A stretch of DNA of 52,843 nucleotides from Nemertoderma westbladi (lineage: Eukaryota > Animalia > Xenacoelomorpha). Below the pieces are notes generated by a model. The model had not been told where the DNA came from. It searched no databases and saw only the letters and a list, made by a program, of their open reading frames with translations. This document shows, one piece after another, positions 7,508-51,351 of this stretch; positions within the stretch are counted from its first letter, which is position 1; each line of letters begins with the position of its first letter. The position numbers and the translations under genes are program-made. The stretch is from positions 1 to 52,843 of the forward strand of contig JAUCBJ010006092.1 of NCBI GenBank assembly GCA_032718475.1. Direction: 5' to 3'.

Positions 7508-7587
7508 TGGGGCGAGCCACGAAGTTGGCGGAGCCTTAGCGAATTGACACTGTTAGGGGGTGGGTCAATTTATGCAAATAGTTGTCG

Positions 7588-7619
<32 letters not shown>

Positions 7620-9276: not shown

Positions 9277-9406
9277 GTGGGGCGAGCCACGAAGTTGGCG
9301 GAGCCTTAGCGAATTGACACTGTTAGGGGGTGGGTCAATTTACGAAGTTGGCGGAGCCTTAGCGAATTGACACTGTTAGGGGGTGGGTCAATTTATGCAA
9401 ATAGTT

Positions 9407-9451
<45 letters not shown>

Positions 9452-9466
9452 GTCGTCGTCGTCGTT

Positions 9467-9522
<56 letters not shown>

Positions 9523-12678: not shown

Positions 12679-12746
12679 ATGTTTGCCTTGTACTGTCTTA
12701 CATTGACAGTTCTGGTACATCTACTGTCTGCTGCAGCTCAGGAAAC
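12679..12746 (+). CDS. LGIC coding exon 1 (signal peptide)
   Basis: ATG at 12679 gives MFALYCLTLTVLVHLLSAAAQE-, a hydrophobic core ending in an AxA cleavage motif; donor AC|GTAAGT at 12747. An upstream acceptor (ttcattattcctag|, exon start 12628) implies a further 5'UTR exon upstream. Confidence 0.75.
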
Positions 12747-18700: not shown

Positions 18701-21700
18701 AAAGTTAGGGAATTGATTTTTTTTACAATTTATGTAAAAATGCTAATTTTCTAATAATTATTCTTAAGAAGGACAATTATAGTGACTTATGGTTATTATT
18801 CTTAAGAAGGACAGTTATTTAATGGTGAAAAATTATGTTTGCTCTGATCTTCAGTCGGGGTTTCTTTCGAATTCGGCAATATATTGTAAAATCATCCCTT
18901 GTTATTCATTATATAAGATTTTTTTATTGAAATATTAATTCACGAGCTTTACACTCAGTTTTATACAAGACGAGAGTTTCTCTCAGTTCGATTGTGTTGC
19001 GGATAGTAGAAATAAACTCATTCACTTTGCAACCATTTCCCCCTTCTTCACCTAGAACTATATACATGCTTTGTTACCCATGCGATAAGTCCCCATTATA
19101 GAAATGGGTGAAAGTTATTAATATTGTATTCAGTCAGCCTTGAAATTAGTTGTGCGGTGTGTAACTGATTTATCAATAACTTACATGCATAATACATAGT
19201 GTTACGTAGTAGGTGTTTATATATACAAATCCTTTGTTAGAAATGTATATGAATGTATAATTGCAATCTATGAATTACAACAAAGGTATTCTGTGTGCCT
19301 GCGTGTCTATATTGTTGTGAGAATAACACTTAGCCGCCACAGACCAACTCATATATATATAACTTTATACATTATATAAAAAAGATACCAATCAATATGT
19401 AGTCTAGTTAAGGTACATCATATCAAACAAGCAAACCAGTAGTGTTTTGGTTCCCTGTAATTTAACTGGTACTAATTTTATCGACCCCAGAGGATGAACG
19501 ACTGTGTGGACCCTGGCGGGGCTGAACCTACAACCAATAGATTGCAGGCCCTGTCTAGGAGGAAACTAAAGGTAAATACGGTAGTACTGAGTGCCTAGGC
19601 ACCAAGTACTATGGTAGTATTAACCGCCTAGGCAACGGGAATACCCTCAGGCACCAAGTACTATGGTAGTATTAACTGCCTAGGCAATGGGAACTACCCT
19701 CAGGCACCAAGCACTATGGTAGTATTAACCGCCTAGGCAACGGGAACTACCCTCAGGCACCAGGTACTATGGTAGTATTAACCGCCTAGGCAACGGGAAT
19801 ACCCTCAGGCACCAAGTACTATGGTAGTATTAACCGCCTAGGCAACGGGAATACCCTCAGGCACCAAGTAATATGGTAGTATTAACCGCTTAGGCAATGG
19901 GAACTACCCTCAGGCACCAAGTACTATGGTAGTATTAACCGCCTAGGCAACGGGAATACCCTCAGGCACCAAGTACTATGGTAGTATTAACCGCCTAGGC
20001 AACGGGAATACCCTCAGGCACCAAGTAATATGGTAGTATTAACCGCCTAGGCAATGGGAACTACCCTCAGGCACCAAGTACTATGGTAGTATTAACCGCC
20101 TAAGCAACGGGAACTACCCTCAGGCACCAGGTACTATGGTAGTATTAACCGCCTAGGCAACGGGAATACCCTCAGGCACCAAGTACTATGGTAGTATTAA
20201 CCGCCTAGGCAACGGGAATACCCTCAGGCACCAAGTAATATGGTAGTATTAACCGCCTAGGCAATGGGAACTACCCTCAGGCACCAGGTACTATGGTAGT
20301 ATTAACCGCCTAGGCAACGGGAATACCCTCAGGCACCAAGTAATATGGTAGTATTAACCGCCTAGGCAACGGGAATACCCTCAGGCACCAATTACTATGG
20401 TAGTATTAACCGCCTAGGCAACGGGAATACCCTCAGGCACCAGGTAATATGGTAGTATTAACCGCCTAGGCAATGGGAACTACCCTCAGGCACCAGGTAC
20501 TATGGTAGTATTAACCGCCTAGGCAACGGGAATACCCTCTCATCTGTAAAATAATGCAGTGGCAGTCTGTGTATCCTTGTTTGAGTGGTGGCAGTCTGTG
20601 TATCCTTGTTTGAGTGGTGGCAGTCTGTGTATCCTTGTTTGAGTGGTGAGCATACCTGGTGGATTATTTATTTACGAGATCGATTTTACGTGATACATCC
20701 TATAGGTGGCGAATTAATTTTTAGGCTTGCTGCTCATCAAGATTCCCATTAAAATTACATATTTATTTAAATCGAGGTTGACATGTAAATGTTTTCACAT
20801 GGGGGGGGGGGGGGGGGGGGGGGGGGGCTGGAAGCAAATGCGCCTCAATGTTAAATTCTCAATTTAGGGAAATGAGCAGGTTACAGTGGCACGTTATTTT
20901 AACCAAAACAATAAACTAAACACAATAGAACAGGTTAAAGTAACCAAAACAATAAACTAAACACAATAGAACAGGTTAAAGTTTTATTTTTTAAATTAAT
21001 CAGCTGTTACTTACGTCGAATTTCCCCTGGAGAGGTATGCATTTTTATTGCGTCCAGTTCCCCCCCCCCCCCCCCCCGCCCCTATCTGTAATTATCATAC
21101 CGAGATGAGTAATTCTACCATCGTTTTCAAGTCTACTCCATTTTCGCTTTCTGTCTGTTGGCCAATTACACCATGACGAAAAAGTTATTAAATTTCGATA
21201 CAAGATATATATATATTTCATTAATTGAGTGATCGGTAGTAAACCAACCTCCCTTGGGAAATCTTTACGAGAGAATTGTTCTATGTGATATAATAATATA
21301 CAATATTTATTACAATAATATTTTATTTTTCATACCTAGAATCGATAGTGACTCATCAACAACAGTCACAACTACAACAACATCAACAACACCAGAAACT
21401 CCTGATCCAGTCGAATCTGCAGAATATATTGACGATTATTATGAATACAACGAATATGAAGAGTATGTAAATAATTAGTTGTTGTTGATTAAAATTATCT
21501 GTAATTATATATATAAAATATATATAAAAGTCAGGTCAGGTCCCCAGATCCTGCTACCACTATGGCAGTAATGTGGTACTACCTGTAGCTGTCAGCCCAG
21601 TAGGGCAGGCCCGGTAAGCATAGCCTATTCATTATTAAGTTGATCAAGAGTGGGTTGGTTTAGCCCCGTCAACTAAATAAGTCATTGAGGGCTATAGCGC

Positions 21701-24700: not shown

Positions 24701-27700
24701 TCATGACCTTTAATGTTGATGGAAACTTGACAACCATTGATAATAATCAACTAAGGAAGGTCGACGACTTCCAGTACCTTGGATCATGGATAGAGAGTAG
24801 CAAAAAGGACATAGAAGTTAGAAAAGCAAAGGCTTGGGTAGCTCTATCAAAAATGGATTCCATCTGGAAATCAGATCTCTCCAGGCACCTGAAGACTAAG
24901 TTCTTTCGAGCCACAGTGGAAAGTGTATTTTTATACGGGGGTGAGACCTGGACACTGACTAAACATCAGCTTGAGACAACACATGACAAACGCCGAGCTT
25001 TATGGTACAATACCACCTGTATCAACCACCCTCCGTGAACGCAGATTGAGATTCAGTGGGCACTGCTGGCGAAGTAAAGACGAGGTCATACCAGATCTAC
25101 TTCTCTGGCAACTTACTCATGGAAAGCGTAATCGTGGACGACTGGCCATATATAAATGCACATGGCACATATATAGATCAACTTGAAAGGGATACTGAAC
25201 TTGGGAGAAACGAAATTGTGACAACCATGGAGAATCGGGAAGCCTGAAAGGATCTCATTTCCACTGTCCGAGTTCGCTCGACCTAGTAGTAGTAGTAATT
25301 ATATATAATTATACCATATACTTAATTAAATACAATCTTAATCATTATTATTTTAACTTTACATTAAAAAGTAGTTGAATTATAAATTGTTGCGGCAGCC
25401 GAATATTTTATTACCTAACATAGAAGTAAATGAATTCAATATTATTTTGTAAGTGTAAGTCACTCAATAAGTCAGTTTAGCAGGATGAAGAGAGATATAT
25501 TTAAATTGAAGTTCAACAATTATTTAGGGATGTATTATTCAATACAGATTGAGAGATTGATGGTACTGATATACTGCATTTCGCTCTCATTGATTTAAGG
25601 ATATAGTCGATACAGACGGAGAGATTGATGGTACTGATATACTGCATTTCACTCTCATTGATTTAAGGATATAGTCGATACAGACGGAGAGATTGATGGT
25701 ACTGATATACTGCATTTCGCTCTCATTGATTTAAGGATATAGTCGATACAGATGGAGAGATTGATGGTACCAATATACTGCATTTCGCTCTCATTGATTT
25801 AAGGATATAGTCGATACAGACGGAGAGATTGATGGTACTGATATACTGCATTTCGCTCTCATTGATTTAAGGATATAGTCGATACAGACGGAGAGATTGA
25901 TGGTACTGATATACTGCAGTTAGCTCTCATTGATTTAGGAATGTAGTTGATACAGATGGAGAGATTGATGGTACCGATATACCGCAGTTCGTTCTCATTA
26001 ATTTAGGGATGTAGTTGATACAGACAGAGAGATTGATTGTACCGATCCAATATACTGCAGTTCGCTCTCATTGATTTAAGGATATAGTCGATACAGACGG
26101 AGAGATTGATGGTACTGATATACTGCATTTCACTCTCATTGATTTAAGGATATAGTCGATACAGACGGAGAGATTGATGGTACTGATATACTGCATTTCA
26201 CTCTCATTGATTTAAGGATATAGTCGATACAGACGGAGAGATTGATGGTACTGATATACTGCATTTCGCTCTCATTGATTTAAGGATATAGTCGATACAG
26301 ACGGAGAGATTGATGGTACTGATATACTGCATTTCGCTCTCATTGATTTAAGGATATAGTCGATACAGACGGAGAGATTGATGGTACTGATATACTGCAG
26401 TTAGCTCTCATTGATTTAGGAATGTAGTTGATACAGATGGAGAGATTGATGGTACCGATATACCGCAGTTCGTTCTCATTAATTTAGGGATGTAGTTGAT
26501 ACAGACAGAGAGATTGATTGTACCGATCCAATATACTGCAGTTCGCTCTCATTGATTTAAGGATATAGTCGATACAGACGGAGAGATTGATGGTACTGAT
26601 ATACTGCATTTCACTCTCATTGATTTAAGGATATAGTCGATACAGACGGAGAGATTGATGGTACTGATATACTGCATTTCACTCTCATTGATTTAAGGAT
26701 ATAGTCGATACAGACGGAGAGATTGATGGTACTGATATACTGCATTTCGCTCTCATTGATTTAAGGATATAGTCGATACAGACGGAGAGATTGATGGTAC
26801 TGATATACTGCATTTCGCTCTCATTGATTTAAGGATATAGTCGATACAGACAGAGAGATTGATGGTACCGATCCGATATACCGCAGTTCGTTAATTTATT
26901 TAGGAATGTAGTCGATACAGATGGAGAGATTGATGGTGCCAATATACTACAGTTTGATCTCATTTATTTAGGGATCTAGTCGATACAGATGGAGAGATTG
27001 ATGGTACCGATATACTGCAGTTCATTCTCTTTGATTTAGGGATGTAGTCGATACAGACAGAGAGATTGATGGTACCGATCCAATATACCGCAGTTCGATC
27101 TCATTGATTTAGGGATGTAGTCGATACAGATGGAGAGATTGTTGGTACCGATATACTGCAGTTCGCTCTCATTTATTTAGGGATGTAGTTGATACAGACA
27201 GAGAGATTGATGGTACCGATCCAATATACCGCAGTTCGATCTCATTGATTTAGGGATGTAGTCGATACAGATGGAGAGATTGACGGTACCGATATACTGC
27301 AGTTCGTTAATTTATTTAGGAATGTAGTCGATACAGATGGAGAGATTGATGGTACCGATACACTGCAGTTCGTTCTCATTGATTTAGGGATGTAGTCGAT
27401 ACAGACAGAGAGATTGATGGTACCGATCCAATATACCGCAGTTCGCTCTCATTGATTTAGGGATGTAGTCGATACAGACAGAGAGATTGATGGTACCGAT
27501 ACACTGCAGTTCGTTCTCATTGATTTAGGGATGTAGTCGATACAGACAGAGAGATTGATGGTACCGATCCAATATACCGCAGTTTGCTCTCATTGATTTA
27601 GGGATCTAGTCGATACAGACAGAGAGATTGATGGTACCGATACACTGCAGTTCGTTCTCATTGATTTAGGGATGTAGTCGATACAGACAGAGAGATTGAT

Positions 27701-30700
27701 GGTACCGATCCAATATACCGCTGTTCGATCTCATTTATTTAGGGATGTAGTCGATACAGATGGAGAGATTGATGGTACCGATATACTGCAGTTCGCTCTC
27801 ATTAATTTAGGGATGTAGTTGATACAGACAGAGAGATTGATGGTACCAATATACCGCTGTTCGATCTCATTTATTTAGGGATGTAGTCGATACAGATGGA
27901 GAGATTGATGGTACCGATATACTGCAGTTCGCTCTCATTAATTTAGGGATGTAGTTGATACAGATGGAGAGATTGATGGTACCAATATACTGCAGTTCGC
28001 TCTCATTGATTTAGGGATGTAGTTGATACAGTTGGAGAGATTGATGGTACCGATATACTGCAGTTCGCTCTCATTAATTTAGGGATGTAGTTGATACAGA
28101 TGGAGAGATTGATGGTACCGATATACTGCAGTTCGCTCTCATTAATTTAGGGATGTAGTTGATACAGATGGAGAGATTGATGGTACCAATATACTGCAGT
28201 TCGCTCTCATTGATTTAGGGATGTAGTTGATACAGATGGAGTGATTGATGGTACCGATATACTGCAGTTCGCTCTCATTTATTTAGGGATGTAGTTGATA
28301 CAGATGGAGAGATTGATGGTACCAATATACTGCAGTTCGCTCTCATTGATTTTGGGATGAGGTCGATACAGATGGAGAGATTGATGGTACCGATCCAATA
28401 TACCACAGTTCGTTAATTTATTTAGGAATGTAGTCGATACGGATGGAGAGATTGATGGTGCCAATATACTGCATTTCGTTCTCATTTATTTAGGGATGTA
28501 GTTGATACAGACAGAGAGATTGATGGTACCGATACACTGCAGTTCGTTCTCATTGATTTAGGGATGTAGTCGATACAGACAGAGAGATTGATGGTACCGA
28601 TCCAATATACCGCAGTTCGATCTCATTGATTTAGGGATGTAGTCGATACAGAGAGAGAGATTGATGGTACCGATATACTGCAGTTCACTCTCATTTATTT
28701 AGGGATGTAGTCGATACAGATGGAGAGATTGATGGTACCGATACACTGCAGTTCGTTCTCATTGATTTAGGGATGTAGTCGATACAGACAGAGAGATTGA
28801 TGGTACCGATCCAATATACCGCAGTTCGATCTCATTGATTTAGGGATGTAGTCGATACAGACAGAGAGATTGATGGTACCGATATACTGCAGTTCGCTCT
28901 CATTTATTTAGGGATGTAGTCGATACAGACAGAGAGATTGATGGTACCGATCCAATATACCGCAGTTCGATCTCATTGATTTAGGGATGTAGTCGATACA
29001 GATGGAGAGATTGATGGTACCGATATACTGCAGTTCGCTCTCATTGATTTAGGAATGTAGTTGATACATATGGAGAGATTGATGGTACCGATATACTGCA
29101 GTTCGCTCTCATTGATTTAGGGATGTAGTCGATACAGATGGAGAGATTGATGGTACCAATATACTGCAGTTCGCTCTCATTCATTTAAGGATCTAGTCGA
29201 TACAGATGGAGAGATTGATGGTACCAATATACTACAGTTTGATCTCATTTATTTAGGGATCTAGTCAATACCGATTGAAGCGATTGATGGTATGGATACA
29301 CTGCATTTCGTTCTCATTGATTTAGGGATGTAGTCAATACAGACAGAGAGATTGATGGTACCGATCCAATATACCGCTGTTCGATCTCATTGATTTAGGG
29401 ATGTAGTTGATACAGATTGAGAGATTGATGGTACCGATATACTGCAGTTCGCTCTCATTGATTTAGGAATGTAGTTGATACAGATGGAGAGATTGATGGT
29501 ACTGATATACTGCATTTCGTTCTCATTGATTTAGGGATGTAGTCAATACAGACAGAGAGATTGATGGTACCGATCCAATATACCGCTGTTCGATCTCATT
29601 GATTTAGGGATGTAGTTGATACAGATTGAGAGATTGATGGTACCGATATACTGCAGTTCGCTCTCATTGATTTAGGAATGTAGTTGATACAGATGGAGAG
29701 ATTGATGGTACTGATATACTGCAGTTCGCTCTCATTGATTTAGGGATGTAGTCGCTACAGACGGAGAGATTGATGGTACCAATATACTGCAGTTCGCTCT
29801 CATTGATTTAGGGATGTAGTTGATACAGATGGAGAGATTGATGGTACTGATATACTGCAGTTCGTTCTCATTGATTTAAGGATATAGTCGCTACAGACGG
29901 AGAGATTGATGGTACCAATATACTGCAGTTCGCTCTCATTGATTTAGGGATGTAGTTGATACAGACAGAGAGATTGATGGTACCGATCCAATATACTGCA
30001 GTTCGCTCTCATTCATTTAAGGATCTAGTCGATACAGATGGAGAGATTGATGGTACCGATATACTGCAGTTCGATCTCATTTATTTAGGGATCTAGTTGA
30101 TGCAGATGGAGAGATTGATGGTACCAATATACTGCAGTTCGTTCTCATTGATTTAAGGATATAGTCGCTACAGACGGAGAGATTGATGGTACCAATATAC
30201 CGCTGTTCGATCTCATTTATTTAGGGATCTAGTCGATACAGATGGAGAGATTGATGGTACCGATATACTGCAGTTCGATCTCATTTATTTAGGGATCTAG
30301 TTGATGCAGATGGAGAGATTGATGGTACCAATATACTGCAGTTCGTTCTCATTGATTTAAGGATATAGTCGCTACAGACGGAGAGATTGATGGTACCAAT
30401 ATACCGCTGTTCGATCTCATTTATTTAGGGATGTAGTCGATACAGATGGAGAGATTGATGGTACCGATATACTGCAGTTCGTTCTCATTGATTTAAGGAT
30501 ATAGTCGCTACAGACGGAGAGATTGATGGTACCAATATACTGCAGTTCGCTCTCATTGATTTAGGGATGTAGTTGATACAGACAGAGAGATTGATTGTAC
30601 CGATCCAATATACTGCAGTTCGCTCTCATTCATTTAAGGATGTAGTCGATACAGATGGAGAGATTGATGGTACCAATATACTGCAGTTCGCTCTCATTGA

Positions 30701-33700
30701 TTTAGGGATGTAGTTGATACAGACAGAGAGATTGATTGTACCGATCCAATATACTGCAGTTCGCTCTCATTCATTTAAGGATGTAGTCGATACAGACGGA
30801 GAGATTGATGGTACCAATATACTGCAGTTCGCTCTCATTGATTTAGGGATGTAGTTGATACAGACAGAGAGATTGATTGTACCGATCCAATATACTGCAG
30901 TTCGCTCTCATTCATTTAAGGATGTAGTCGATACAGATGGAGAGATTGATGGTACCGATATACTGCAGTTCGCTCTCATTGATTTAGGAATGTAGTCGAT
31001 ACAGATGGAGAGATTGATGGTACCGATATACTGCAGTTCGCTCTCATTAATTTAGGGATATAGTTGATACAGATGGAGAGATTGATGGTACCGATATACT
31101 GCAGTTCGCTCTCATTGATTTAGGGATGTAGTCGATACAGACAGAGAGATTGATGGTACCGATCCAATATACCGCAGTTCGCTCTCATTGATCTAGGAAT
31201 GTAGTCGATACAGATGGAGAGATTGATGGTACCAATATACTGCAGTTCGATCTCATTTATTTAGGGATCTAGTTGATGCAGATGGAGAGATTGATGGTAC
31301 GGATATACTGCAGTTCGTTAATTTATTTAGGAATGTAGTCGATACAGATGGAGAGATTGTTGTGGTACCAATATACTGCAGTTCGCTCTCATTGATTTAA
31401 GGATATAGTCGATACAGACGGAGAGATTGATGGTACTGATATACTGCATTTCGTTCTCATTGATTTAGGGATGTAGTCGATACAGACAGAGAGACTGATG
31501 GTACCAATATACTGCAGTTCGTTCTCATTTATTTAGGGATGTAGTTGATACAGATGGAGAGATTGATGGTACCGATCCGATATACCGCAGTTCGATCTCA
31601 TTGATTTAAGGATATAGTCGATACAGACGGAGAGATTGATGGTACTGATATACTGCAGTTAGCTCTCATTGATTTTGGGATGTAGTTGATACAGATGGAG
31701 AGATTGATGGTACTGATACACTGCATTTCGTTCTCATTTATTTAGGGATGTAGTTGATACAGATGGAGAGATTGATGGCACCGATATACTGCAGTTCGAT
31801 CTCATTTATTTAGGGATCTAGTTGATGCAGATGGAGAGATTGATGGTACGGATATACTGCAGTTCGTTAATTTATTTAGGAATGTAGTCGATACAGATGG
31901 AGAGATTGTTGTGGTACCAATATACTGCAGTTCGCTCTCATTGATTTAAGGATATAGTCGATACAGACGGAGAGATTGATGGTACTGATATACTGCATTT
32001 CGTTCTCATTGATTTAGGGATGTAGTCGATACAGACAGAGAGATTGATGGTACCAATATACTGCAGTTCGCTCTCATTGATTTTGGGATGTAGTTGATAC
32101 AGATGGAGAGATTGATGGTACTGATACAATATACCGCAGTTCGATCTCATTGATTTAAGGATATAGTCGATACAGACGGAGAGATTGATGGTACTGATAT
32201 ACTGCAGTTAGCTCTCATTGATTTTGGGATGTAGTTGATACAGATGGAGAGATTGATGGTACTGATATACTGCATTTCGTTCTCATTTATTTAGGGATGT
32301 AGTTGATACAGATGGAGAGATTGATGGTACCGATCCGATATACCGCAGTTCGATCTCATTGATTTAAGGATATAGTCGATACAGACGGAGAGATTGGTGG
32401 TACTGATATACTGCAGTTAGCTCTCATTGATTTTGGGATGTAGTTGATACAGATGGAGAGATTGATGGTACTGATATACTGCATTTCGTTCTCATTTATT
32501 TAGGGATGTAGTTGATACAGATGGAGAGATTGATGGCACCGATATACTGCAGTTCGTTCTACAAGGCTACGATGGCCGAGTATCTCCAAGCGACTTAACA
32601 AAGAAACCAACAAATGTTACCATATCCATATATGTTACCAATCTTGGACCCATTTCCGAGCAAAACATGGTAAGTTTACTTTCGATTTCGTGGCTGTTTC
32701 ATTAGAAAAATTTATGCTAGCAGTATGATGCCAACAAAGTTAGGGAACACGAAATATAAATGCAGAGCTGGACTTTTAATGAAATTGCTCAAAGAGTTAT
32801 TAACAATAATTATAAGATGTGCTAGTATGCCAAAGTTCCATATATTAATTTGTTTGCGAATAATATTTCCCAATTATTACACGTGTGTATTTAACGAATC
32901 TTTTAGAAATTCTCACCCATAATAAATCACTCAGCTCCATTCTAATGAATAAATGTTTGTTATCCCTAGAATTTTGGTGTGGATTTTTACTTGAGACACA
33001 CGTGGGTGGATCCAAGGATGAACTGGACTAGACTACTGGTCGAGAACAATCTGACGGTGGAAGGACGGCCACCATACCCTATCAGTAAGTGATGACCGGT
33101 AGAAGGACGGCCACCATACCCTATCAGTAAGTGATGGTCGGTAGAAGGACGGCCACCATACCCTATAAGTAAATGATGGCTGGTAGAAGGACGGCCACCA
33201 TACCCTATCAGTAAGTGAATCTCGGTAGAAGGACGGCCACCATACCCTATCAGTAAGTGATGGTCTGTAGAAGGACGGCCACCATACCCTATCAGTAAGT
33301 GATGGTCTGTAGAAGGACGGCCACCATACCCTATCAGTAAGTGATGGTCGGTAGAAGGACGGCCACCATACCCTATCAGTAAGTGATGGTCTGTAGAAGG
33401 ACGGCCACCATACCCTATCAGTAAGTGATGGTCTGTAGAAGGACGGCCACCATACCCTATCAGTAAGTGATGACCGGTAGAAGGACGGCCACCATACCCT
33501 ATCAGTAAGTGATGGTCGGTAGAAGGACGGCCACCATACCCTATCAGTAAGTGATGGTCGGTAGAAGGACGGCCACCATACCCTATCAGTAAGTGATGAC
33601 CGGTAGAAGGACGGCCACCATACCCTATCAGTAAGTGATGGTCGGTAGAAGGACGGCCACCATACCCTATAAGTAAATGATGGCTGGTAGAAGGACGGCC

Positions 33701-36700
33701 ACCATACCCTATCAGTAAGTGAATCTCGGTAGAAGGACGGCCACCATACCCTATCAGTAAGTGATGGTCTGTAGAAGGACGGCCACCATACCCTATCAGT
33801 AAGTGATGGCCGGTAGAAGGACGGCCACCATACCCTATCAGTAAGTGATGGTCGGTAGAAGGACGGCCACCATACCCTATCAGTAAGTGATGGTCGGTAG
33901 AAGGACGGCCACCATACCCTATCAGTAAGTGATGGTCGGTAGAAGGACGGCCACCATACCCTATCAGTAAGTGATGACCGGTAGAAGGACGGCCACCATA
34001 CCCTATCAGTAAGTGATGGTCGGTAGAAGGACGGCCACCATACCCTATCAGTAAGTGATGGTCGGTAGAAGGACGGCCACCATACCCTATCAGTAAGTGA
34101 TGACCGGTAGAAGGACGGCCACCATACCCTATCAGTAAGTGATGGTCGGTAGAAGGACGGCCACCATACCCTATCAGTAAGTGATGGTCGGTAGAAGGAC
34201 GGCCACCATACCCTATCAGTAAGTGATGGTCGGTAGAAGGACGGCCACCATACCCTATCAGTAAGTGATGACCGGTAGAAGGACGGCCACCATACCCTAT
34301 CAGTAAGTGATGGTCGGTAGAAGGACGGCCACCATACCCTATCAGTAAGTGATGGTCGGTAGAAGGACGGCCACCATACCCTATCAGTAAGTGATGACCG
34401 GTAGAAGGACGGCCACCATACCCTATCAGTAAGTGATGACCGGTAGAAGGACGGCCACCATACCCTATCAGTAAGTGATGGTCGGTAGAAGGACGGCCAC
34501 CATACCCTATCAGTAAGTGATGACCGGTAGAAGGACGGCCACCATACCCTATCAGTAAGTGATGGTCGGTAGAAGGACGGCCACCATACCCTATCAGTAA
34601 GTGATGGTCGGTAGAAGGACGGCCACCATACCCTATCAGTAAGTGATGACCGGTAGAAGGACGGCCACCATACCCTATCAGTAAGTGATGACCGGTAGAA
34701 GGACGGCCACCATACCCTATCAGTAAGTGATGGCCGGTAGAAGGACGGCCACCATACCCTATCAGTAAGTGATGGTCGGTAGAAGGACGGCCACCATACC
34801 CTATCAGTAAGTGATGACCGGTAGAAGGACGGCCACCATACCCTATCAGTAAGTGATGGTCGGTAGAAGGACGGCCACCATACCCTATCAGTAAGTGATG
34901 GTCGGTAGAAGGACGGCCACCATACCCTATCAGTAAGTGATGGTCGGTAGAAGGACGGCCACCATACCCTATCAGTAAGTGATGACCGGTAGAAGGACGG
35001 CCACCATACCCTATCAGTAAGTGATGGTCGGTAGAAGGACGGCCACCATACCCTATCAGTAAGTGATGGTCGGTAGAAGGACGGCCACCATACCCTATCA
35101 GTAAGTGATGACCGGTAGAAGGACGGCCACCATACCCTATCAGTAAGTGATGACCGGTAGAAGGACGGCCACCATACCCTATCAGTAAGTGATGACCGGT
35201 AGAAGGACGGCCACCATACCCTATCAGTAAGTGATGACCGGTAGAAGGACGGCCACCATACCCTATCAGTAAGTGATGGTCGGTAGAAGGACGGCCACCA
35301 TACCCTATCAGTAAGTGATGGTCGGTAGAAGGACGGCCACCATACCCTATCAGTAAGTGATGGTCGGTAGAAGGACGGCCACCATACCCTATCAGTAAGT
35401 GATGGTCGGTAGAAGGACGGCCACCATACCCTATCAGTAAGTGATGACCGGTAGAAGGACGGCCACCATACCCTATCAGTAAGTGATGACCGGTAGAAGG
35501 ACGGCCACCATACCCTATCAGTAAGTGATGACCGGTAGAAGGACGGCCACCATACCCTATCAGTAAGTGATGGTCGGTAGAAGGACGGCCACCATACCCT
35601 ATCAGTAAGTGATGGTCGGTAGAAGGACGGCCACCATACCCTATCAGTAAGTGATGGTCGGTAGAAGGACGGCCACCATACCCTATCAGTAAGTGATGGT
35701 CGGTAGAAGGACGGCCACCATACCCTATCAGTAAGTGATGACCGGTAGAAGGACGGCCACCATACCCTATCAGTAAGTGATGGTCGGTAGAAGGACGGCC
35801 ACCATACCCTATCAGTAAGTGATGGTCGGTAGAAGGACGGCCACCATACCCTATCAGTAAGTGATGGTCTGTAGAAGGACGGCCACCATACCCTATCAGT
35901 AAGTGATGACCGGTAGAAGGACGGCCACCATACCCTATCAGTAAGTGATGACCGGTAGAAGGACGGCCACCATACCCTATCAGTAAGTGATGGTCTGTAG
36001 AAGGACGGCCACCATACCCTATCAGTAAGTGATGGTCTGTAGAAGGACGGCCACCATACCCTATCAGTAAGTGATGACCGGTAGAAGGACGGCCACCATA
36101 CCCTATCAGTAAGTGATGGTCGGTAGAAGGACGGCCACCATACCCTATCAGTAAGTGATGGTCGGTAGAAGGACGGCCACCATACCCTATCAGTAAGTGA
36201 TGGTCTGTAGAAGGACGGCCACCATACCCTATCAGTAAGTGATGACCGGTAGAAGGACGGCCACCATACCCTATCAGTAAGTGATGGTCGGTAGAAGGAC
36301 GGCCACCATACCCTATCAGTAAGTGATGGTCTGTAGAAGGACGGCCACCATACCCTATCAGTAAGTGATGACCGGTAGAAGGACGGCCACCATACCCTAT
36401 CAGTAAGTGATGACCGGTAGAAGGACGGCCACCATACCCTATCAGTAAGTGATGACCGGTAGAAGGACGGCCACCATACCCTATCAGTAAGTGATGGTCG
36501 GTAGAAGGACGGCCACCATACCCTATCAGTAAGTGATGGTCTGTAGAAGGACGGCCACCATACCCTATCAGTAAGTGATGGTCGGTAGAAGGACGGCCAC
36601 CATACCCTATCAGTAAGTGATGGTCTGTAGAAGGACGGCCACCATACCCTATCAGTAAGTGATGACCGGTAGAAGGACGGCCACCATACCCTATCAGTAA

Positions 36701-39700
36701 GTGATGGTCGGTAGAAGGACGGCCACCATACCCTATCAGTAAGTGATGGTCGGTAGAAGGACGGCCACCATACCCTATCAGTAAGTGATGACCGGTAGAA
36801 GGACGGCCACCATACCCTATCAGTAAGTGATGACCGGTAGAAGGACGGCCACCATACCCTATCAGTAAGTGATGACCGGTAGAAGGACGGCCACCATACC
36901 CTATCAGTAAGTGATGGTCTGTAGAAGGACGGCCACCATACCCTATCAGTAAGTGATGACCGGTAGAAGGACGGCCACCATACCCTATCAGTAAGTGATG
37001 GTCGGTAGAAGGACGGCCACCATACCCTATCAGTAAGTGATGGTCTGTAGAAGGACGGCCACCATACCCTATCAGTAAGTGATGGTCGGTAGAAGGACGG
37101 CCACCATACCCTATCAGTAAGTGATGACCGGTAGAAGGACGGCCACCATACCCTATCAGTAAGTGATGGTCTGTAGAAGGACGGCCACCATACCCTATCA
37201 GTAAGTGATGGTCGGTAGAAGGACGGCCACCATACCCTATCAGTAAGTGATGGTCTGTAGAAGGACGGCCACCATACCCTATCAGTAAGTGATGGTCGGT
37301 AGAAGGACGGCCACCATACCCTATCAGTAAGTGATGACCGGTAGAAGGACGGCCACCATACCCTATCAGTAAGTGATGGTCTGTAGAAGGACGGCCACCA
37401 TACCCTATCAGTAAGTGATGACCGGTAGAAGGACGGCCACCATACCCTATCAGTAAGTGATGGTCTGTAGAAGGACGGCCACCATACCCTATCAGTAAGT
37501 GATGGTCGGTAGAAGGACGGCCACCATACCCTATCAGTAAGTGATGACCGGTAGAAGGACGGCCACCATACCCTATCAGTAAGTGATGGTCGGTAGAAGG
37601 ACGGCCACCATACCCTATCAGTAAGTGATGACCGGTAGAAGGACGGCCACCATACCCTATCAGTAAGTGATGACCGGTAGAAGGACGGCCACCATACCCT
37701 ATCAGTAAGTGATGACCGGTAGAAGGACGGCCACCATACCCTATCAGTAAGTGATGACCGGTAGAAGGACGGCCACCATACCCTATCAGTAAGTGATGAC
37801 CGGTAGAAGGACGGCCACCATACCCTATCAGTAAGTGATGACCGGTAGAAGGACGGCCACCATACCCTATCAGTAAGTGATGGTCGGTAGAAGGACGGCC
37901 ACCATACCCTATCAGTAAGTGATGGTCGGTAGAAGGACGGCCACCATACCCTATCAGTAAGTGATGACCGGTAGAAGGACGGCCACCATACCCTATCAGT
38001 AAGTGATGGTCTGTAGAAGGACGGCCACCATACCCTATCAGTAAGTGATGGTCGGTAGAAGGACGGCCACCATACCCTATCAGTAAGTGATGACCGGTAG
38101 AAGGACGGCCACCATACCCTATCAGTAAGTGATGACCGGTAGAAGGACGGCCACCATACCCTATCAGTAAGTGATGACCGGTAGAAGGACGGCCACCATA
38201 CCCTATCAGTAAGTGATGGTCTGTAGAAGGACGGCCACCATACCCTATCAGTAAGTGATGGTCGGTAGAAGGACGGCCACCATACCCTATCAGTAAGTGA
38301 TGACCGGTAGAAGGACGGCCACCATACCCTATCAGTAAGTGATGACCGGTAGAAGGACGGCCACCATACCCTATCAGTAAGTGATGACCGGTAGAAGGAC
38401 GGCCACCATACCCTATCAGTAAGTGATGGTCTGTAGAAGGACGGCCACCATACCCTATCAGTAAGTGATGGTCGGTAGAAGGACGGCCACCATACCCTAT
38501 CAGTAAGTGATGACCGGTAGAAGGACGGCCACCATACCCTATCAGTAAGTGATGGTCTGTAGAAGGACGGCCACCATACCCTATCAGTAAGTGATGGTCG
38601 GTAGAAGGACGGCCACCATACCCTATCAGTAAGTGATGGTCTGTAGAAGGACGGCCACCATACCCTATCAGTAAGTGATGGTCGGTAGAAGGACGGCCAC
38701 CATACCCTATCAGTAAGTGATGACCGGTAGAAGGACGGCCACCATACCCTATCAGTAAGTGATGGTCTGTAGAAGGACGGCCACCATACCCTATCAGTAA
38801 GTGATGACCGGTAGAAGGACGGCCACCATACCCTATCAGTAAGTGATGGTCTGTAGAAGGACGGCCACCATACCCTATCAGTAAGTGATGGTCGGTAGAA
38901 GGACGGCCACCATACCCTATCAGTAAGTGATGACCGGTAGAAGGACGGCCACCATACCCTATCAGTAAGTGATGGTCGGTAGAAGGACGGCCACCATACC
39001 CTATCAGTAAGTGATGGTCTGTAGAAGGACGGCCACCATACCCTATCAGTAAGTGATGGTCTGTAGAAGGACGGCCACCATACCCTATCAGTAAGTGATG
39101 ACCGGTAGAAGGACGGCCACCATACCCTATCAGTAAGTGATGACCGGTAGAAGGACGGCCACCATACCCTATCAGTAAGTGATGGTCTGTAGAAGGACGG
39201 CCACCATACCCTATCAGTAAGTGATGACCGGTAGAAGGACGGCCACCATACCCTATCAGTAAGTGATGGTCTGTAGAAGGACGGCCACCATACCCTATCA
39301 GTAAGTGATGGTCTGTAGAAGGACGGCCACCATACCCTATCAGTAAGTGATGACCGGTAGAAGGACGGCCACCATACCCTATCAGTAAGTGATGGTCTGT
39401 AGAAGGACGGCCACCATACCCTATCAGTAAGTGATGACCGGTAGAAGGACGGCCACCATACCCTATCAGTAAGTGATGGTCTGTAGAAGGACGGCCACCA
39501 TACCCTATCAGTAAGTGATGGTCGGTAGAAGGACGGCCACCATACCCTATCAGTAAGTGATGACCGGTAGAAGGACGGCCACCATACCCTATCAGTAAGT
39601 GATGGTCGGTAGAAGGACGGCCACCATACCCTATCAGTAAGTGATGGTCTGTAGAAGGACGGCCACCATACCCTATCAGTAAGTGATGGTCTGTAGAAGG

Positions 39701-42700
39701 ACGGCCACCATACCCTATCAGTAAGTGATGACCGGTAGAAGGACGGCCACCATACCCTATCAGTAAGTGATGACCGGTAGAAGGACGGCCACCATACCCT
39801 ATCAGTAAGTGATGGTCTGTAGAAGGACGGCCACCATACCCTATCAGTAAGTGATGGTCGGTAGAAGGACGGCCACCATACCCTATCAGTAAGTGATGAC
39901 CGGTAGAAGGACGGCCACCATACCCTATCAGTAAGTGATGGTCTGTAGAAGGACGGCCACCATACCCTATCAGTAAGTGATGACCGGTAGAAGGACGGCC
40001 ACCATACCCTATCAGTAAGTGATGACCGGTAGAAGGACGGCCACCATACCCTATCAGTAAGTGATGGTCTGTAGAAGGACGGCCACCATACCCTATCAGT
40101 AAGTGATGGTCGGTAGAAGGACGGCCACCATACCCTATCAGTAAGTGATGACCGGTAGAAGGACGGCCACCATACCCTATCAGTAAGTGATGACCGGTAG
40201 AAGGACGGCCACCATACCCTATCAGTAAGTGATGGTCGGTAGAAGGACGGCCACCATACCCTATCAGTAAGTGATGGTCGGTAGAAGGACGGCCACCATA
40301 CCCTATCAGTAAGTGATGGTCGGTAGAAGGACGGCCACCATACCCTATCAGTAAGTGATGGTCTGTAGAAGGACGGCCACCATACCCTATCAGTAAGTGA
40401 TGGTCTGTAGAAGGACGGCCACCATACCCTATCAGTAAGTGATGACCGGTAGAAGGACGGCCACCATACCCTATCAGTAAGTGATGGTCGGTAGAAGGAC
40501 GGCCACCATACCCTATCAGTAAGTGATGACCGGTAGAAGGACGGCCACCATACCCTATCAGTAAGTGATGGTCGGTAGAAGGACGGCCACCATACCCTAT
40601 CAGTAAGTGATGGTCGGTAGAAGGACGGCCACCATACCCTATCAGTAAGTGATGACCGGTAGAAGGACGGCCACCATACCCTATCAGTAAGTGATGGTCT
40701 GTAGAAGGACGGCCACCATACCCTATCAGTAAGTGATGGTCGGTAGAAGGACGGCCACCATACCCTATCAGTAAGTGATGACCGGTAGAAGGACGGCCAC
40801 CATACCCTATCAGTAAGTGATGGTCTGTAGAAGGACGGCCACCATACCCTATCAGTAAGTGATGGTCGGTAGAAGGACGGCCACCATACCCTATTAGTAA
40901 GTGATGACCGGTAGAAGGACGGCCACCATACCCTATCAGTAAGTGATAGGTCGGCGGCCGTGTAAGTGATGTAAATGATGTAAGTGATAGGTCGGCGGCC
41001 GTGTAAGTGATGTAAGTGATGTAAGTGATAGGTCGGCCGGCCACTTATAGAAGTAAAAGTGTCTAAGTCTGTACTCCCAGATATTCCCATTGGCGATATC
41101 TCCTTTGCAGAAGTGAAGGCTGCTGCAAAGAGCATTAAGACCAATCGTGCCAGTGGAGTAAATGGTGTTCCCCCTGAGGTCTTTAAAATACCTGAGTGTT
41201 TAAAGCTCATCTATCCCATCATAGTAGACATGTACCGAACAACAAGAGTCCCACAAGAAATGAAAACAAATAAGTTGGTGTCAGTTCCCAAGAAGGGCAA
41301 CCTAACACTCTATGGTTCTTTTCGGGGAATCTCATTGATCTCGATTGCTGCAAAGCTATACAATAGGATTCTATTAAATCGCATCAGGGATCCCATTGAG
41401 AGACTGCTCCGTGGAAATCAGAATGGGTTCCGTAAAGGTCGTGGGACCATGGAGCCCATCTTTTTTCACGATATTATATTGAAATTTGGTTTTTTTGTTG
41501 TTAAAAATATATTAAATCTTCTAAAAAATATTCGCCGCAATAGAAACGGAATTTATTTAAGTTTACATAAAACTTATTAAAACTTCCAAATGCACAGCTT
41601 AGGATTGGCCACCACTACTGCATCACAGCAGAGTACACGACAAAAACGAAATTTTTAGATTATCTAAGAAGAGCAATTCTAACATGTCCGTCCGATGCAC
41701 TATGTGTATTACTTATTCGTTTTTTTATTCAACGAATGAGTAACAATCACAGTTACTAGCTACACAATTATACCGATAACTGCCTCTAGCCAATTGCACC
41801 GCAATTAATCACCTCGAATTTCCCATACCGTCAACACGCTCCCCCTCAGAATAGATGACATCCAACTTTTCGACACAACAAATTCCATCTATGTTACTTA
41901 CTCTGCCTCGTCTACGTTAAATGAGTTCGTATGTAGGTCAGGTCGCAAGAGAATTAAAAAATCAAGTTACCAGAAAATGGCTCTTGAAAGGAATCGCATG
42001 TGCCCTGATTGCGTGAACGCTGTAGGCATACGGATGGTTACCGTTCCACTAAGCTAATTTATCACATCTCGTTCAGCTGGTGCTGGTCTGAGTGGCATTC
42101 TCTCTTACATAACTGCTTTGCAATGGTCATACCAGTAGCACTAGGGTGTATACCAGCAGCACCAGGCTGTATACCTATTTATGTATCTCCGGCTTTATAC
42201 ATATACCAGTAGCATCGGGCTGTATACCTATACCAGCAGCACCAAGCTGTATACCAGTAGAACCAGGCTGTATACCTATACCAGCAGCACTAGGCCGTAT
42301 AGCAATACCAGCAGCATCAGGCTGTTTACCGATAACAGCAACACCAAGCTGTATACCAGCAGCACCAGGCTGTATACCTATACCAGCAGCACCATGCCGT
42401 GCTGCTGCACGTGCTCCAGAACATGCTGCTTCTAGTGTTGGTCTTTTTATTAACTCCAGAAAGACCAAAGTTTTGACAGTTAACTTTGAAAGTCCTCAGC
42501 AAGTCTCTGATCGGATGAGCATAAGCTCAAAGGATGGTATGCTTGAGCATGTGGACGACTTCTGTTACCTGGGATCATGGATCCGGAAGTCAGATGAGGA
42601 CCTTCGAATACGCAAGGGAAAGGCATGGGCATCCTTGAATAGGCTTTCCTGGATTTGGAAGTCACCGAGAATTAATCGGAAACTTAAGGTCCGATTATTT

Positions 42701-45700: not shown

Positions 45701-47928
45701 CATTAATATAGCATACTGTACCATTAATATAGCATACGGTAGCATTAATATAGCATACTGTACCATTAATATAGTATATGGTAGCATTAAATTTTATAAT
45801 TATTATTATCACCTGGAAAACCCTCAACTATTAATGTTATTACGAATTATATATAATATAATTCGTAATCATTGTTTACTCAAGTTTTTACTTACAGTTA
45901 TTAAATTTAATTACAGTTATTAAATGTAATTACTGTTATTAAATTTAATTACAGTTATTAAATTTAATTACAGTTATTAAATTTAATTACAGTTATTAAA
46001 TGTAATTACTGTTATTATATTTAATTACAGTTATTAAATTTAATTACAGTTATTAAATTTAATTACAGTTATTAAATTTAATTACAGTTATTAAATTTAA
46101 TTACAGTTATTAAATTTAATTATAGTTATTAAATTTAATTACAGTTATTAAATTTAATTACAGTTATTAAATTTAATTACAGTTATTAAATTTAATTACA
46201 GTTATTAAATTTAATTACAGTTATTAAATTTAATTACAGTTATTAAATTTAATTACAGTTATTAAATTTAATTACAGTTATTAAATTTAATTACAGTTAT
46301 TAAATTTAATTACAGTTATTAAATTTATTTACAGTTATTAAATTTAATTACAGTTATTAAATTTAATTACAGTTATTAAATTTAATTACAGTTATTAAAT
46401 TTAATTACAGTTATTAAATTTAATTACAGTTATTAAATTTAATTACAGTTATTAAATTTAATTACAGTTATTAAATTTAATTACAGTTATTAAATGTAAT
46501 TACAGTTATTAAATTTAATTACAGTTAATAAATTTAATTACAGTTATTAAATTTAATTACAGTGTTTTATATATTTGTTTTATTTATTGTTCCAGAACAT
46601 GTTAGCTATTCATTTTTTTTTATTATGTTCTAGTACAAATATTTTTAAAACGTGTTTAAAGTCAATAAAAAAAATTGAAAATTGATGTTAATGTTAACAT
46701 GCTTTAAAACGATTTCAGGGTTTGTCTTTTTGCAGTATGTGTATGTTTGTGCAGTGTGCAGTGTATGTTTAAAAAATCTCACCTTTTGGTCCTGTAATAA
46801 TGCCAACAAATTTTCAACACGACACAGCGTTAAATCCGACAAAGTTATTAGCATGTCAAATCGTAACGAAGATAACGTCGCGGCGTCAACAACTATTTGC
46901 CATTATTGTCCCACCCCTAACATTGTCAGTTCACTAAGGCTCCAGCAACGTCGTGGCTCACCCCGCAAAGCGCGAGCTGTATAATCTTAGCACAGTACAG
47001 CCGGCTCGCTGTATTATTTACCTGTACTTTACGTACAGGTCTATAAACATGGATAGGGGCCTAAATATAAATAGGCCAGGTACAGTACCGTGAGATTTAG
47101 CCATAGTCAGATAGTGCAGTAGTGCTGCATTGCACTGACTACTGCTTCCTGAATACGGGCAGATACGTCCCACATACGGTAGGCTACGGGAACTATTTCA
47201 AATACGTACACATACGGCAAAAAGACAAACCCACGATTTCATGCGTTTTAAATAAATTCCAGATTTTCTCCACCAATGTCCAATGTCTTCTGAAATGTTC
47301 TAGAACAAAAATTATTTGTTCTAGAACATGATTTTATTTAAAAAGAATAGCTGACTTGTTCTGGAACATTTTCTATACAAAAAGTAATAAGATTTAGCTA
47401 CTGCAAAATATTTGTAGAAAGAAGTAGGATATCGTAACCAGTGTGGAAATTAATAGCTAAACCTACCTAAATCACTCGCTACCATAAAATTTAGCACAAT
47501 AATTTTTCATTGTGTCCTCTGATTTTGACTTTTTATATTACAGTTACATACACAAAAACAATTCTTAAGATCAATCAAAAAATTTTCAAATTTTCCTTAT
47601 AAATACCAGAGTAATGCCGTTTCAATTACCATGAGATCTTATTAATTGTAGAAATGTTAGTGGGGTGGGGGGGGGGGGGGGGGGGGTAGTCTTAATCAAG
47701 TCATTGAATTTTAATAGCCATGAAATGCTATAATCCTTGAATCAATACGACATTTGGCTCGATCGGTGGTAAAAAAAATTACTAAATACCATAATTAATT
47801 CCATTTTAGGTACAGATTATATTGGCCGGATGTGGTTGGTTGATTCATACTTCCCCACCGAAGTGGAAGCTCATATCCACGATGTAACGACCCCGAACAA
47901 AGCTCTTTGGATCTACACGAGTGGCAAG
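12679..47928 (+). CDS. Multi-exon gene (5' part, 5 coding exons) for a divergent anion-selective-type Cys-loop ligand-gated ion channel subunit (GABA-A/GlyR/GluCl-like); partial at 3' end
   Basis: join(12679-12746,21340-21462,32504-32669,32970-33084,47810-47928) = 591 nt, open throughout, all GT-AG, intron phases 2,2,0,1 matching. Protein: MFALYCLTLTVLVHLLSAAAQET-IDSDSSTTVTTTTTSTTPETPDPVESAEYIDDYYEYNEYEE-DVVDTDGEIDGTDILQFVLQGYDGRVSPSDLTKKPTNVTISIYVTNLGPISEQNM-NFGVDFYLRHTWVDPRMNWTRLLVENNLTVEGRPPYPIS-TDYIGRMWLVDSYFPTEVEAHIHDVTTPNKALWIYTSGK. By eye it matches the GlyR/GABA-A extracellular-domain motifs GYDxRxRP, V..IY..SLGPISE..M, FLRQxWxDPRL, WxPDxFFxNE and AHFHEVTTxNKLLRI. Family assignment is by recognition, not by a search. 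Confidence 0.9.
12900..13820 (+). mobile_element. 5'-truncated RTE-clade LINE (family B), RT C-terminal part with (TAG)n tail
   Basis: LDFADDL at about 12991-13011; VDDFCYLGS, LFRAAVVPVLLY..CWALT and RLRFAGHCFR motifs; ends ctagtagtagtagta. Confidence 0.9.
16625..16910 (-). mobile_element. 3' fragment of RTE family A LINE
   Basis: VSTTLRERRLRFSGH and IDQLERDTE..NEI..TMENREAWKDLISTVR, matching 25020-25280 in the opposite orientation. Confidence 0.85.
17720..18000 (-). mobile_element. Degenerate CR1/L2-group LINE remnant
   Basis: KPWMTPALVKS...YKTYRNQLTKILR resembles the endonuclease-RT linker motif of CR1/L2-like elements. Confidence 0.45.
19445..19550 (-). mobile_element. tRNA-derived SINE fragment (Nin/Meta-like central domain)
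   Basis: Reverse complement reads ...gtaggttcagccccgccagggtcc...tcatcctctggggtcgataaaattagtaccag, a B-box-like element followed by a conserved-domain-like motif. Confidence 0.45.
19597..20538. repeat. 52/53-bp tandem array, about 18 copies
   Basis: Unit GGCACCAAGTACTATGGTAGTATTAACCGCCTAGGCAACGGGAA(C)TACCCTCA. Confidence 0.95.
21340..21462 (+). CDS. LGIC coding exon 2 (Thr/Ser-rich plus acidic Tyr-rich N-terminal extension)
   Basis: Acceptor ttttatttttcatacctag|A, donor GA|GTATGT; 123 nt, phase 2-2, joins exon 1 and exon 3 in frame. Confidence 0.75.
21530..25296 (+). mobile_element. Near full-length, inactivated RTE-clade LINE (family A): APE endonuclease plus RT
   Basis: APE motifs IATMNARTL, IICIQEH, YSPT, AGDLNA, QLDYIL, SDH; RT motifs KASGLDEIP, PKKGDL..PTNYRGI, VDFKKAFDS, GVLQGDTLAP, ADD, FQYLGS; multiple stops and frameshifts; (TAG)n tail. 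Confidence 0.93.
24351..24630 (-). mobile_element. tRNA-derived SINE inserted antisense into the RTE RT domain
   Basis: Minus strand has A-box TGGTGTAGTGG, B-box GGTTCGATCC and a (CTTTA)n tail; it interrupts the RT frame between ...LADAQL and L..LNKVE. A related tail is at about 51940-51980. Confidence 0.85.
25519..32560 (+). repeat. 68/73-bp tandem array, about 100 copies, made of the exon-3 acceptor plus the first ~57 nt of exon 3
   Basis: Unit CTCATTGATTTAG|GGATGTAGTTGATACAGATGGAGAGATTGATGGTACCGATATACTGCAGTTCG(C/T)T; the last copy continues directly into the unique exon sequence CTACAAGGCTACGAT. Confidence 0.95.
32504..32669 (+). CDS. LGIC coding exon 3 (N-terminal helix, GYDxR motif, beta1)
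   Basis: Acceptor ctcatttatttag|G, donor ATG|GTAAGT; encodes DVVDTDGEIDGTDILQFVLQGYDGRVSP...NVTISIYVTNLGPISEQNM. The phase-0 intron after this Met matches the known GABA-A/GlyR intron position. Confidence 0.92.
32970..33084 (+). CDS. LGIC coding exon 4 (loop D region)
   Basis: Acceptor tgtttgttatccctag|, donor ATCA|GTAAGT; encodes NFGVDFYLRHTWVDPRM...EGRPPYPI (compare GlyR DYRVNIFLRQQWNDPRL). Confidence 0.92.
33057..40947 (+). repeat. 42-bp tandem array, about 188 copies, made of the 3' end of exon 4 plus its GTAAGT donor
   Basis: Unit GTAGAAGGACGGCCACCATACCCTATCA|GTAAGTGAT(GGTCG/GACCG/GGTCT); the first copy is the coding end of exon 4 (VEGRPPYPI). Confidence 0.96.
41045..41460 (+). mobile_element. 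RTE LINE internal fragment (RT N-terminal part)
   Basis: RASGVNGVPPEVFK, VPKKGNL..FRGISL.SIAAKLYNRILLNRIR and NQNGFRKGRGT motifs. Confidence 0.88.
42418..43383 (+). mobile_element. 5'-truncated RTE family B copy, interrupted by a solo LTR
   Basis: Nearly identical to 13062-13815 on both sides of a 227-bp insert; ends ctagtagta. Confidence 0.9.
42784..43010. mobile_element. Solo LTR (227 bp)
   Basis: TG...CA termini (TGTGGT...ACCACACA), perfect 5-bp target duplication GGCAC (42779-42783 and 43011-43015), internal AATAAA; the empty site is visible in the paralogous RTE copy (gatggcacattc, about 13420). Confidence 0.8.
44016..45790. repeat. 21-bp tandem array, about 84 copies
   Basis: Unit GCATTAATATAGCATACGGTA. 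Confidence 0.97.
45893..46562. repeat. 19-bp AT-rich tandem array, about 35 copies
   Basis: Unit ACAGTTATTAAATTTAATT, containing the palindrome ATTAAATTTAAT. Confidence 0.97.
46588..47368. mobile_element. Possible MITE/foldback element with ~60-bp imperfect terminal inverted repeats
   Basis: tgttccagaacatgttagctattc...atgttctagtacaaata (46588-46645) is the reverse complement of tatttgttctagaacat...gaatagctgacttgttctggaaca (about 47310-47368). Confidence 0.5.
46830..46965 (-). mobile_element. 5' fragment of a subfamily-B HINE-like element
   Basis: taaatccgacaaagttattagcatgtcaaatcgtaac and cgtggctcacccc are reverse complements of the 7508-7675 head. Confidence 0.65.
47810..47928 (+). CDS. LGIC coding exon 5 (loop A to loop E region)
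   Basis: Acceptor ttccattttag|GT, donor AAG|GTTAGT; encodes TDYIGRMWLVDSYFPTEVEAHIHDVTTPNKALWIYTSGK (compare GlyR [33 protein letters not shown]); phase 1 matches exon 4. Confidence 0.9.
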
Positions 47929-51300: not shown

Positions 51301-51351
51301 GTGTGGTTACTGTGTCGGATCTGTTGCTTCTATAATGTGGTTACTGTGTCG
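48318..51351. repeat. 34-bp tandem array, about 89 copies
   Basis: Unit CTGTGTCGGATCTGTTGCTTCTATAGTGTGGTTA. Confidence 0.97.

Follow-up and report, generated by a model that had tools for sequence, protein, structure and literature searches.

We analyzed a 52,843-nucleotide (nt) stretch of the Nemertoderma westbladi genome (GenBank assembly GCA_032718475.1, contig JAUCBJ010006092.1, positions 1 to 52,843), which we call the window. It holds part of a gene for a likely Cys-loop channel subunit, and two adjacent exons of this gene are bracketed by long tandem arrays made of their own splice junctions. Exon 3 (32504..32669, plus strand, as are all exons and arrays below; 166 nt) contains the start of the ligand-binding domain and is the terminal copy of array 1. 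Exon 4 (32970..33084; 115 nt) has as its last 30 nt the first copy of array 2. Both exons are flanked by AG and GT, and between them lies intron 3 (32670..32969), a 300-bp, GT..AG intron that is free of array sequence. A first-pass annotation, made from the letters alone, had described these exons with their normal 300-bp intron, about 100 acceptor copies upstream and about 188 donor copies downstream, and had taken the arrays to be two independent junction amplifications with the functional exon as terminal copy in each. All of this was borne out, the counts being 102 and 188 units by unit splitting, close to those from Tandem Repeats Finder (TRF).

Array 1, on the acceptor side (25519..32560), has 102 units of about 68 bp, each made of approximately 13 nt of intron end and the first 55 nt or so of exon 3. 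TRF on the window gave a period of 68 at 25542-32560, with 101.7 copies and 87% matches. When the array was split on an internal anchor, there were 102 anchors, spaced by 68 bp (73 times), 73 bp (20 times), 66 bp (3 times), 70 bp and 71 bp (twice each), and 69 bp (once). The 101 units upstream of the terminal one comprise 69 distinct sequences with a mean pairwise identity of 0.876, and exact higher-order repeats occur at 481, 549, and 209 bp. Identity to the exon shows no gradient along the array (Spearman 0.15, p 0.13). At the homologous acceptor position, AG is present in 67 of the 101 upstream units and lost in 34 (TTTAA/G in 29 and TTTTG/G in 5; the slash marks the junction), and the G of this AG is the 8th most variable of the 68 columns. 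The outer edge (25510..25549) is likely to be the original end of intron 2 with its acceptor (the AG ending at 25527), now 7 kb upstream of exon 3 and followed by a decayed exon copy.

Array 2, on the donor side (33055..40947), is far more regular. It has 188 units of exactly 42 bp, each consisting of the last 30 nt of exon 4 and 12 nt of the donor side. TRF gave a period of 42 at 33055-40954 (188.1 copies, 96% matches), and splitting gave 188 anchors with all 187 spacings exactly 42 bp. GT is retained in 188/188 copies, and exon 4's own donor 9-mer, TCA/GTAAGT, in 185. There are 11 unit types, and the mean pairwise identity is 0.965. The units are in frame, with an in-frame stop directly past each donor. 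The claim that the amplified copies carry splice sites was thus right for every donor copy, but for the acceptors it holds in only 67 of 101 upstream units. The outer edge (40939..41042) is likely to be the original start of intron 4; it contains small secondary repeats of the donor core (periods 41, 23, and 9) and then runs into a high-copy long interspersed nuclear element (LINE) fragment. In each of the three genomic runs, the copy number of this retrotransposon piece (from about 41045) is very high. On the minus strand, 32990-41210 has two stop-free frames (2,685 and 2,725 codons) that could be miscalled as a gene. We rejected these long open frames over array 2, which are by-products of a stop-free 42-bp unit.

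Each exon can be told apart from its copies at a synonymous site. In the 32537 region, exon 3 differs from 100 of the 101 array 1 copies, and at position 33059, exon 4 differs from all 187 array 2 copies. Because the exons differ from nearly all of their own copies at such sites, neither have the arrays overwritten the exons nor the exons the arrays.

Which sites are used was judged from sequencing runs. Six are listed for the region, none of them recorded as RNA, a label that carries no information on expression, and we compared assembled contigs. One run, X4, is labelled "DNA?", yet it holds a spliced contig. This contig of 904 nt joins the end of exon 2, 32504..32669, 32970..33084, and the start of exon 5, with a GT..AG skip of the 300 nt of intron 3 and no differences from exon 3. 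It was the sole X4 contig that matched 32436-33126 (1/1), and intron coverage was zero. Since no intron is covered, the run behaves as a transcriptome. Therefore, on one contig in one run, the main mRNA uses the innermost acceptor and the first donor. Distal sites would be unproductive: a premature stop followed from all 66 upstream acceptors tested (of the 67 with AG) and from all 187 distal donors. The first-pass annotation had expected the innermost sites to be favored, and the X4 contig agrees with this.

In amphioxus, minisatellites that lie over 5' and 3' exon-intron boundaries have been described as mirages (PMC3087553, PMC3902484). Here, the 68-bp and 42-bp units each span an exon-intron boundary and are in register with the acceptor of exon 3 and the donor of exon 4, respectively, and the X4 spliced contig places the real exon at the end of each array and all other copies in introns. 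The two arrays thus show the testable defining features of a mirage and are of a kind already known.

The working acceptor of exon 3 has an unusual context (32461..32503), lying within the last unit of array 1 and consisting largely of exon-derived sequence. Some 30 nt before 32504, the terminal unit carries CTGAT, a predicted branch-point-like motif; its AG-free zone extends over 43 nt, and its pyrimidine count is the highest. Because the duplication separated the old intron from the working acceptor, the predicted branch point and most of the pyrimidine tract are copied exon sequence. The -30 motif and the AG-free zone occur together at only 6 of the 67 AG-bearing acceptor positions scored. 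The terminal unit offers one of the best acceptor contexts in array 1. One upstream copy (32295) equals the real acceptor over -45..+19, yet it is unused in the X4 contig. These features hint at selection on the terminal unit but are not significant.

The rest of the gene lies to either side of the arrays. Exon 2 (21340..21462) encodes a Thr-rich, acidic N-terminal linker and ends in phase 2; the loose end of the X4 contig before 32504 is 21433-21462, and the 5' end of the exon is predicted from AG context and frame. The other loose end, after 33087, is 47813-47842 and shows the start of exon 5 (47810..47928), whose end is predicted at an AAG/GTTAGT donor. As coding exon 1 we predict 12679..12746, which is signal-peptide-like, has a phase-2 GTAAGT donor, is open with exons 2 to 5, and was the better of two candidates in a scan of 1-21340. 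A perfect 29-bp triple repeat in intron 1 (20559-20652, with a donor-like GTG/GTGAGC) was rejected as coding exon 1, having a stop in the gene frame when joined to exon 2. Joined together, exons 1 to 5 give 197 codons with no stops, and the introns are 8,593, 11,041, 300, and 14,725 bp. We found no further exons in the window beyond these five, and within it none for the Cys-loop or the four transmembrane helices. Because the X4 contig extends some 350 nt onward from exon 5, the remaining Cys-loop and transmembrane exons are probably downstream of the window.

On this sequence evidence, the host gene appears to encode a divergent GABA-A/glycine-receptor-like Cys-loop channel subunit. Against Pfam PF02931 (Neur_chan_LBD), exon 3 scored E 1.1e-4 and exon 4 E 0.053, both under the curated gathering cutoff. 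Single exons matched GABA-A and glycine receptor chains at E values near 1e-4, colinear tblastn matches covered exons 3 and 5, and the best solved relative of these two exons was GABA-A gamma-2 (E 5.4e-4 and 1.6e-4, respectively). A HMMER search of representatives gave three matches, two vertebrate GABA-A-like proteins (about 40%) and one unrelated repeat protein, and a word-based protein search with exon 3 matched none of 7 candidates. No close relative was found by these protein and HMMER searches.

A tandem array in an assembly might be a product of the assembler. It can be said for this explanation, which would make the arrays or much of their length artefacts, that all of the support comes from contigs and that the long form of array 2 was seen only in run X1, which may be the source DNA of the assembly. 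Other evidence runs the opposite way. In X1, contig depth summed over units was about 135 times (array 1) and 350 times (array 2) the single-copy contig depth, ratios that are a rough guide rather than copy numbers but are of the order expected for 102 and 188 copies. Array 1 and its variant letters also occur in runs X2 and X3, which come from a separate study and are recorded as one sample, and the array 1 outer junction is identical in contigs of X1 and X2. The array 1 depth ratios were approximately 135, 86, and 32 in X1, X2, and X3, with the same caution that summed contig depth is no copy number. The 69 distinct array 1 units and their nested higher-order repeats also count against an artefact. 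We therefore regard both arrays as real and an artefact, whole or partial, as most improbable.

Array 2 appears to vary in length. In run X3, an unbranched contig of 659 nt, flat in depth and differing from the window at 10 places, passes through the exon 4 donor. Past donor 1, a complete unit of the commonest type is followed by 13 nt belonging to a third unit, after which come 30 non-array letters. X3 has no high-depth array 2 contigs. An assembler should break a contig at many identical units; the array 2 copy number in X3 is therefore likely to be about 2.3, compared with 188 in the assembly. Its letters differ at the junction as well: a change at 33091, 7 nt into the intron, abolishes the in-frame stop past donor 1, so that splicing from the second donor would lengthen the protein by 14 residues and meet no stop, and there is a synonymous change 2 nt before donor 1. 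Contig cover from X2 ends at 33082 in array 2, and X3 has a gap at 40922-41040; such holes in contigs carry no evidential weight.

The first-pass annotation had raised the idea that the arrays form a field of decoy splice sites under selection, in which copy number tunes productive versus nonsense-mediated decay (NMD)-bound splicing or U1/U2AF is sequestered on the pre-mRNA. The retention of GT in every donor copy and of the donor 9-mer in 185, together with the unproductive outcome of all tested distal use, would suit such a field, and in humans the length of intronic tandem repeats can shift splicing (PMC10078293), so that a dosage effect is conceivable. However, conserved donors are expected anyway in a young array with 11 unit types, and the acceptor motif, with AG absent from 34 of 101 copies, is not conserved. 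The apparent 2.3-copy X3 haplotype, the sole mRNA contig with its use of inner sites, and the abundance of tandem repeats in the window (47% of its length) also argue against it. A literature search for decoy splice sites in intronic tandem repeats with nonsense-mediated decay found no precedent under those words. Positive evidence for selection on a decoy or sequestering field is absent, and we think it very unlikely.

The sequence of array 1 suggests how it may have begun. In a register of 69, 8 of 9 letters at the intron end recur at the exon point 69 nt further on, a microhomology score that 1.1% of some 20,000 random window pairs attain; the intron half of this 9-nt match sits in the outer edge at 25510-25549. 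It may be the scar of a microhomology-guided duplication of 69 bp, later 68. Of 12 crossover points tested for such a 69-bp founder, 11 would keep the frame and bring in no stop, and if so, protein would initially have been made with either acceptor. The same microhomology check was uninformative for the other 6 large arrays in the window, whose TRF limits already include end overlap. With 69 distinct units, an identity of 0.876, and higher-order repeats, array 1 looks older, and array 2, with 11 unit types and an identity of 0.965, looks young. The first-pass annotation had also pointed to the mirror-image architecture of the arrays. The layout is there, but it would need no special cause: when a tandem duplication spans an acceptor, the intact exon ends up on the 3' side, and when it spans a donor, on the 5' side, so geometry should suffice.

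We consider it probable that these are two mirage minisatellites that arose by slippage-type junction duplications, grew as ordinary minisatellites do, and are likely to be tolerated rather than useful, because the mRNA was seen spliced at the innermost sites only. Each would have started as one slippage-type tandem duplication across its junction, a microhomology-guided one of 69 bp in array 1 and one with only a weak match in array 2. Since the inner terminal copy must be the intact exon, growth would run into the intron. Unequal exchange or slippage could then have produced the higher-order repeats of array 1, the young, homogeneous array 2, and a length that seemingly varies between haplotypes. 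By analogy with human genes discussed below, the first donor might be chosen as in F7 and the inner acceptor as in CBS 844ins68, a choice probably helped by exon definition across the compact pair of exons 3 and 4 and by the good acceptor context of the terminal unit. Transcripts that leaked to distal copies would run into a stop, and NMD would likely remove them.

Several points weigh against this interpretation. The RNA support consists of one contig, assembled in a single run that is labelled "DNA?"; rare forms drop out of contigs and NMD targets would be invisible in them, so distal sites could be used at a low level. The short X3 haplotype rests on contig geometry, not on letters or long reads, and X2 and X3, though recorded as one sample, differ at 6 intron 3 sites, at all of which X2 matches the window. 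The array 2 microhomology score was 5 (p 0.29), which is at chance level. AG is missing from 5 of the 7 units nearest exon 3 (hypergeometric p 0.047, run with 35 losses; the corrected count is 34), and this crowding of AG-less units weakly suggests that near decoys are selected against; among array 1 windows of 7 units, 18 of 95 have as many AG-less units as the exon-proximal 7. Finally, 2 arrays on junctions compare with 0.10 expected if the 8 large arrays were seeded uniformly with respect to 9 known or predicted junctions (P of 2 or more = 0.004). This P value is post hoc, the window having been picked for this very feature, and is not a valid enrichment test. Even so, arrays at 2 of 9 junctions leave room for biased seeding.

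Under biased seeding, exon-intron junctions would be preferred seeds of amplification (for example, through slippage or breaks linked to transcription or splicing), or in-frame, stop-free founders would pass early selection and then expand; long arrays would still be neutral, with only their placement nonrandom. Besides the excess over 0.10, the frame and stop-free crossovers of the array 1 founder fit this, as do the 42-bp unit of array 2, a multiple of 3, and a second donor that is stop-free with X3 letters. Apart from the choice of window, it is weakened by the 1-in-9 chance that both units are multiples of 3 and by the outer edge of array 2, which carries a stop, so that the array 2 founder probably did too. 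We think biased seeding unlikely, though it is the alternative to which we give most weight. A bolder idea has less in its favor and strikes us as quite improbable. It would make junction duplications a biased, recurrent class of mutation in repeat-rich invertebrate genomes, with in-frame, stop-free founders passing selection, with branch point and pyrimidine tract rebuilt from exon copies, and with a range of about 2 to about 190 copies within a species acting as a heritable dial on the channel mRNA lost to NMD.

Tolerated mirages, the account we prefer, would lie in a window already rich in repeats. Eleven tandem arrays, interspersed with LINE fragments, fill 47% of it. Of the 8 large ones, 6 have no contact with a known exon junction (edges checked by eye). 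These other large minisatellites are mutually unrelated and lie at 189-2457, 5546-6343, 19597-20539, 44012-45790, 45887-46563, and 48318-51351, with periods of 48, 34, 52, 21, 19, and 34, respectively. An acceptor-like YAG is present in two of the units, that of 34 bp at 48318 and that of 19 bp, but no exon was found after them. Decayed pieces of non-long-terminal-repeat retrotransposons occur at 21900-25200, 12979-13860, 41032-41577, and 42400-43300, with endonuclease and reverse-transcriptase matches below Pfam cutoffs. A dispersed repeat is present in at least two places, 7584-8300 and 9289-10616; it contains a (GTC)n tract and internal units of 315 bp.

These observations extend a little-known class of repeats to arrays far longer than in the cases compared here. 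They indicate that correct splicing of a main mRNA is compatible with 187 near-identical donors and 67 AG-bearing acceptor copies close by. Should the short haplotype prove true, long and short alleles in one species would provide a natural comparison for asking whether more decoys mean lower expression, and also how first-donor and inner-acceptor choice scales from 5 to 25 decoys to more than 100. Such arrays can also mislead gene annotation and read mapping.

The first-pass annotation knew of no named system of this kind, but there are precedents in amphioxus (PMC3087553, PMC3902484) and among human donor variable number tandem repeats (VNTRs) (PMC1557585). To these the present case adds the array length, the paired layout, the RNA support for inner sites, the likely difference of 2 versus 188 copies, and the exon-derived acceptor signals. 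A literature search that mostly missed subscription papers found no genome-wide survey of mirages.

Among the human cases, the closest parallel on the acceptor side is CBS c.844_845ins68 (PMC2630376), a 68-bp duplication of the junction between intron and exon start. There, splicing strongly favors the inner (downstream) site and the mRNA is normal. Array 1 is likewise a 68-bp duplication of such a junction with the inner site preferred. CBS has one extra copy, compared with about 100 here, and the equal length of 68 is a coincidence, the genes being unrelated. On the donor side, the 37-bp VNTR in intervening sequence 7 (IVS7) of human F7 has identical downstream donors that are functional, yet only the most upstream donor of all is chosen, and similar donor VNTRs, with 5 to 25 copies, are found in 6-16, CBS intron 13, lamin B2, and PDGF (PMC1557585). 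As in array 2, the first unit lies across the exon-intron boundary, and identical donor pseudosites follow; length is polymorphic, as it appears to be in array 2; as here, the most upstream donor is used in F7, lamin B2, and PDGF. In 6-16 and CBS, however, the next two pseudosites are used too, which the contigs here cannot rule out. The copy numbers also differ (5 to 9 in F7 and up to 25 in 6-16, versus 188), and the F7 unit is mostly intron (4 nt of exon), whereas that of array 2 is mostly exon (30 of 42 nt).

The amphioxus mirages are the nearest relatives in kind. They occur in Adh3 and the globin genes BflGb6 and BflGb9 (PMC3087553), to which PMC3902484 added troponin C and PGBD5, and they have been proposed as a route to intron gain (PMC3087553). 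In both animals, tandem copies lie across an exon-intron boundary on the 5' or 3' side, and the unit sizes here fall within the 10 to 72 bp of Adh3 (PMC3087553). Many but not all copies keep AG or GT (here, 67/101 acceptors and 188/188 donors), splicing is regular (here, in the main mRNA of one contig), haplotypes differ in length (here, apparently, in X3), and the edge units are divergent. The differences are of scale and layout. Array 1 has 102 copies over 7.0 kb and array 2 has 188 over 7.9 kb, compared with 3 to 6 units in BflGb6, and in N. westbladi an acceptor array and a donor array together bracket an adjacent pair of exons.

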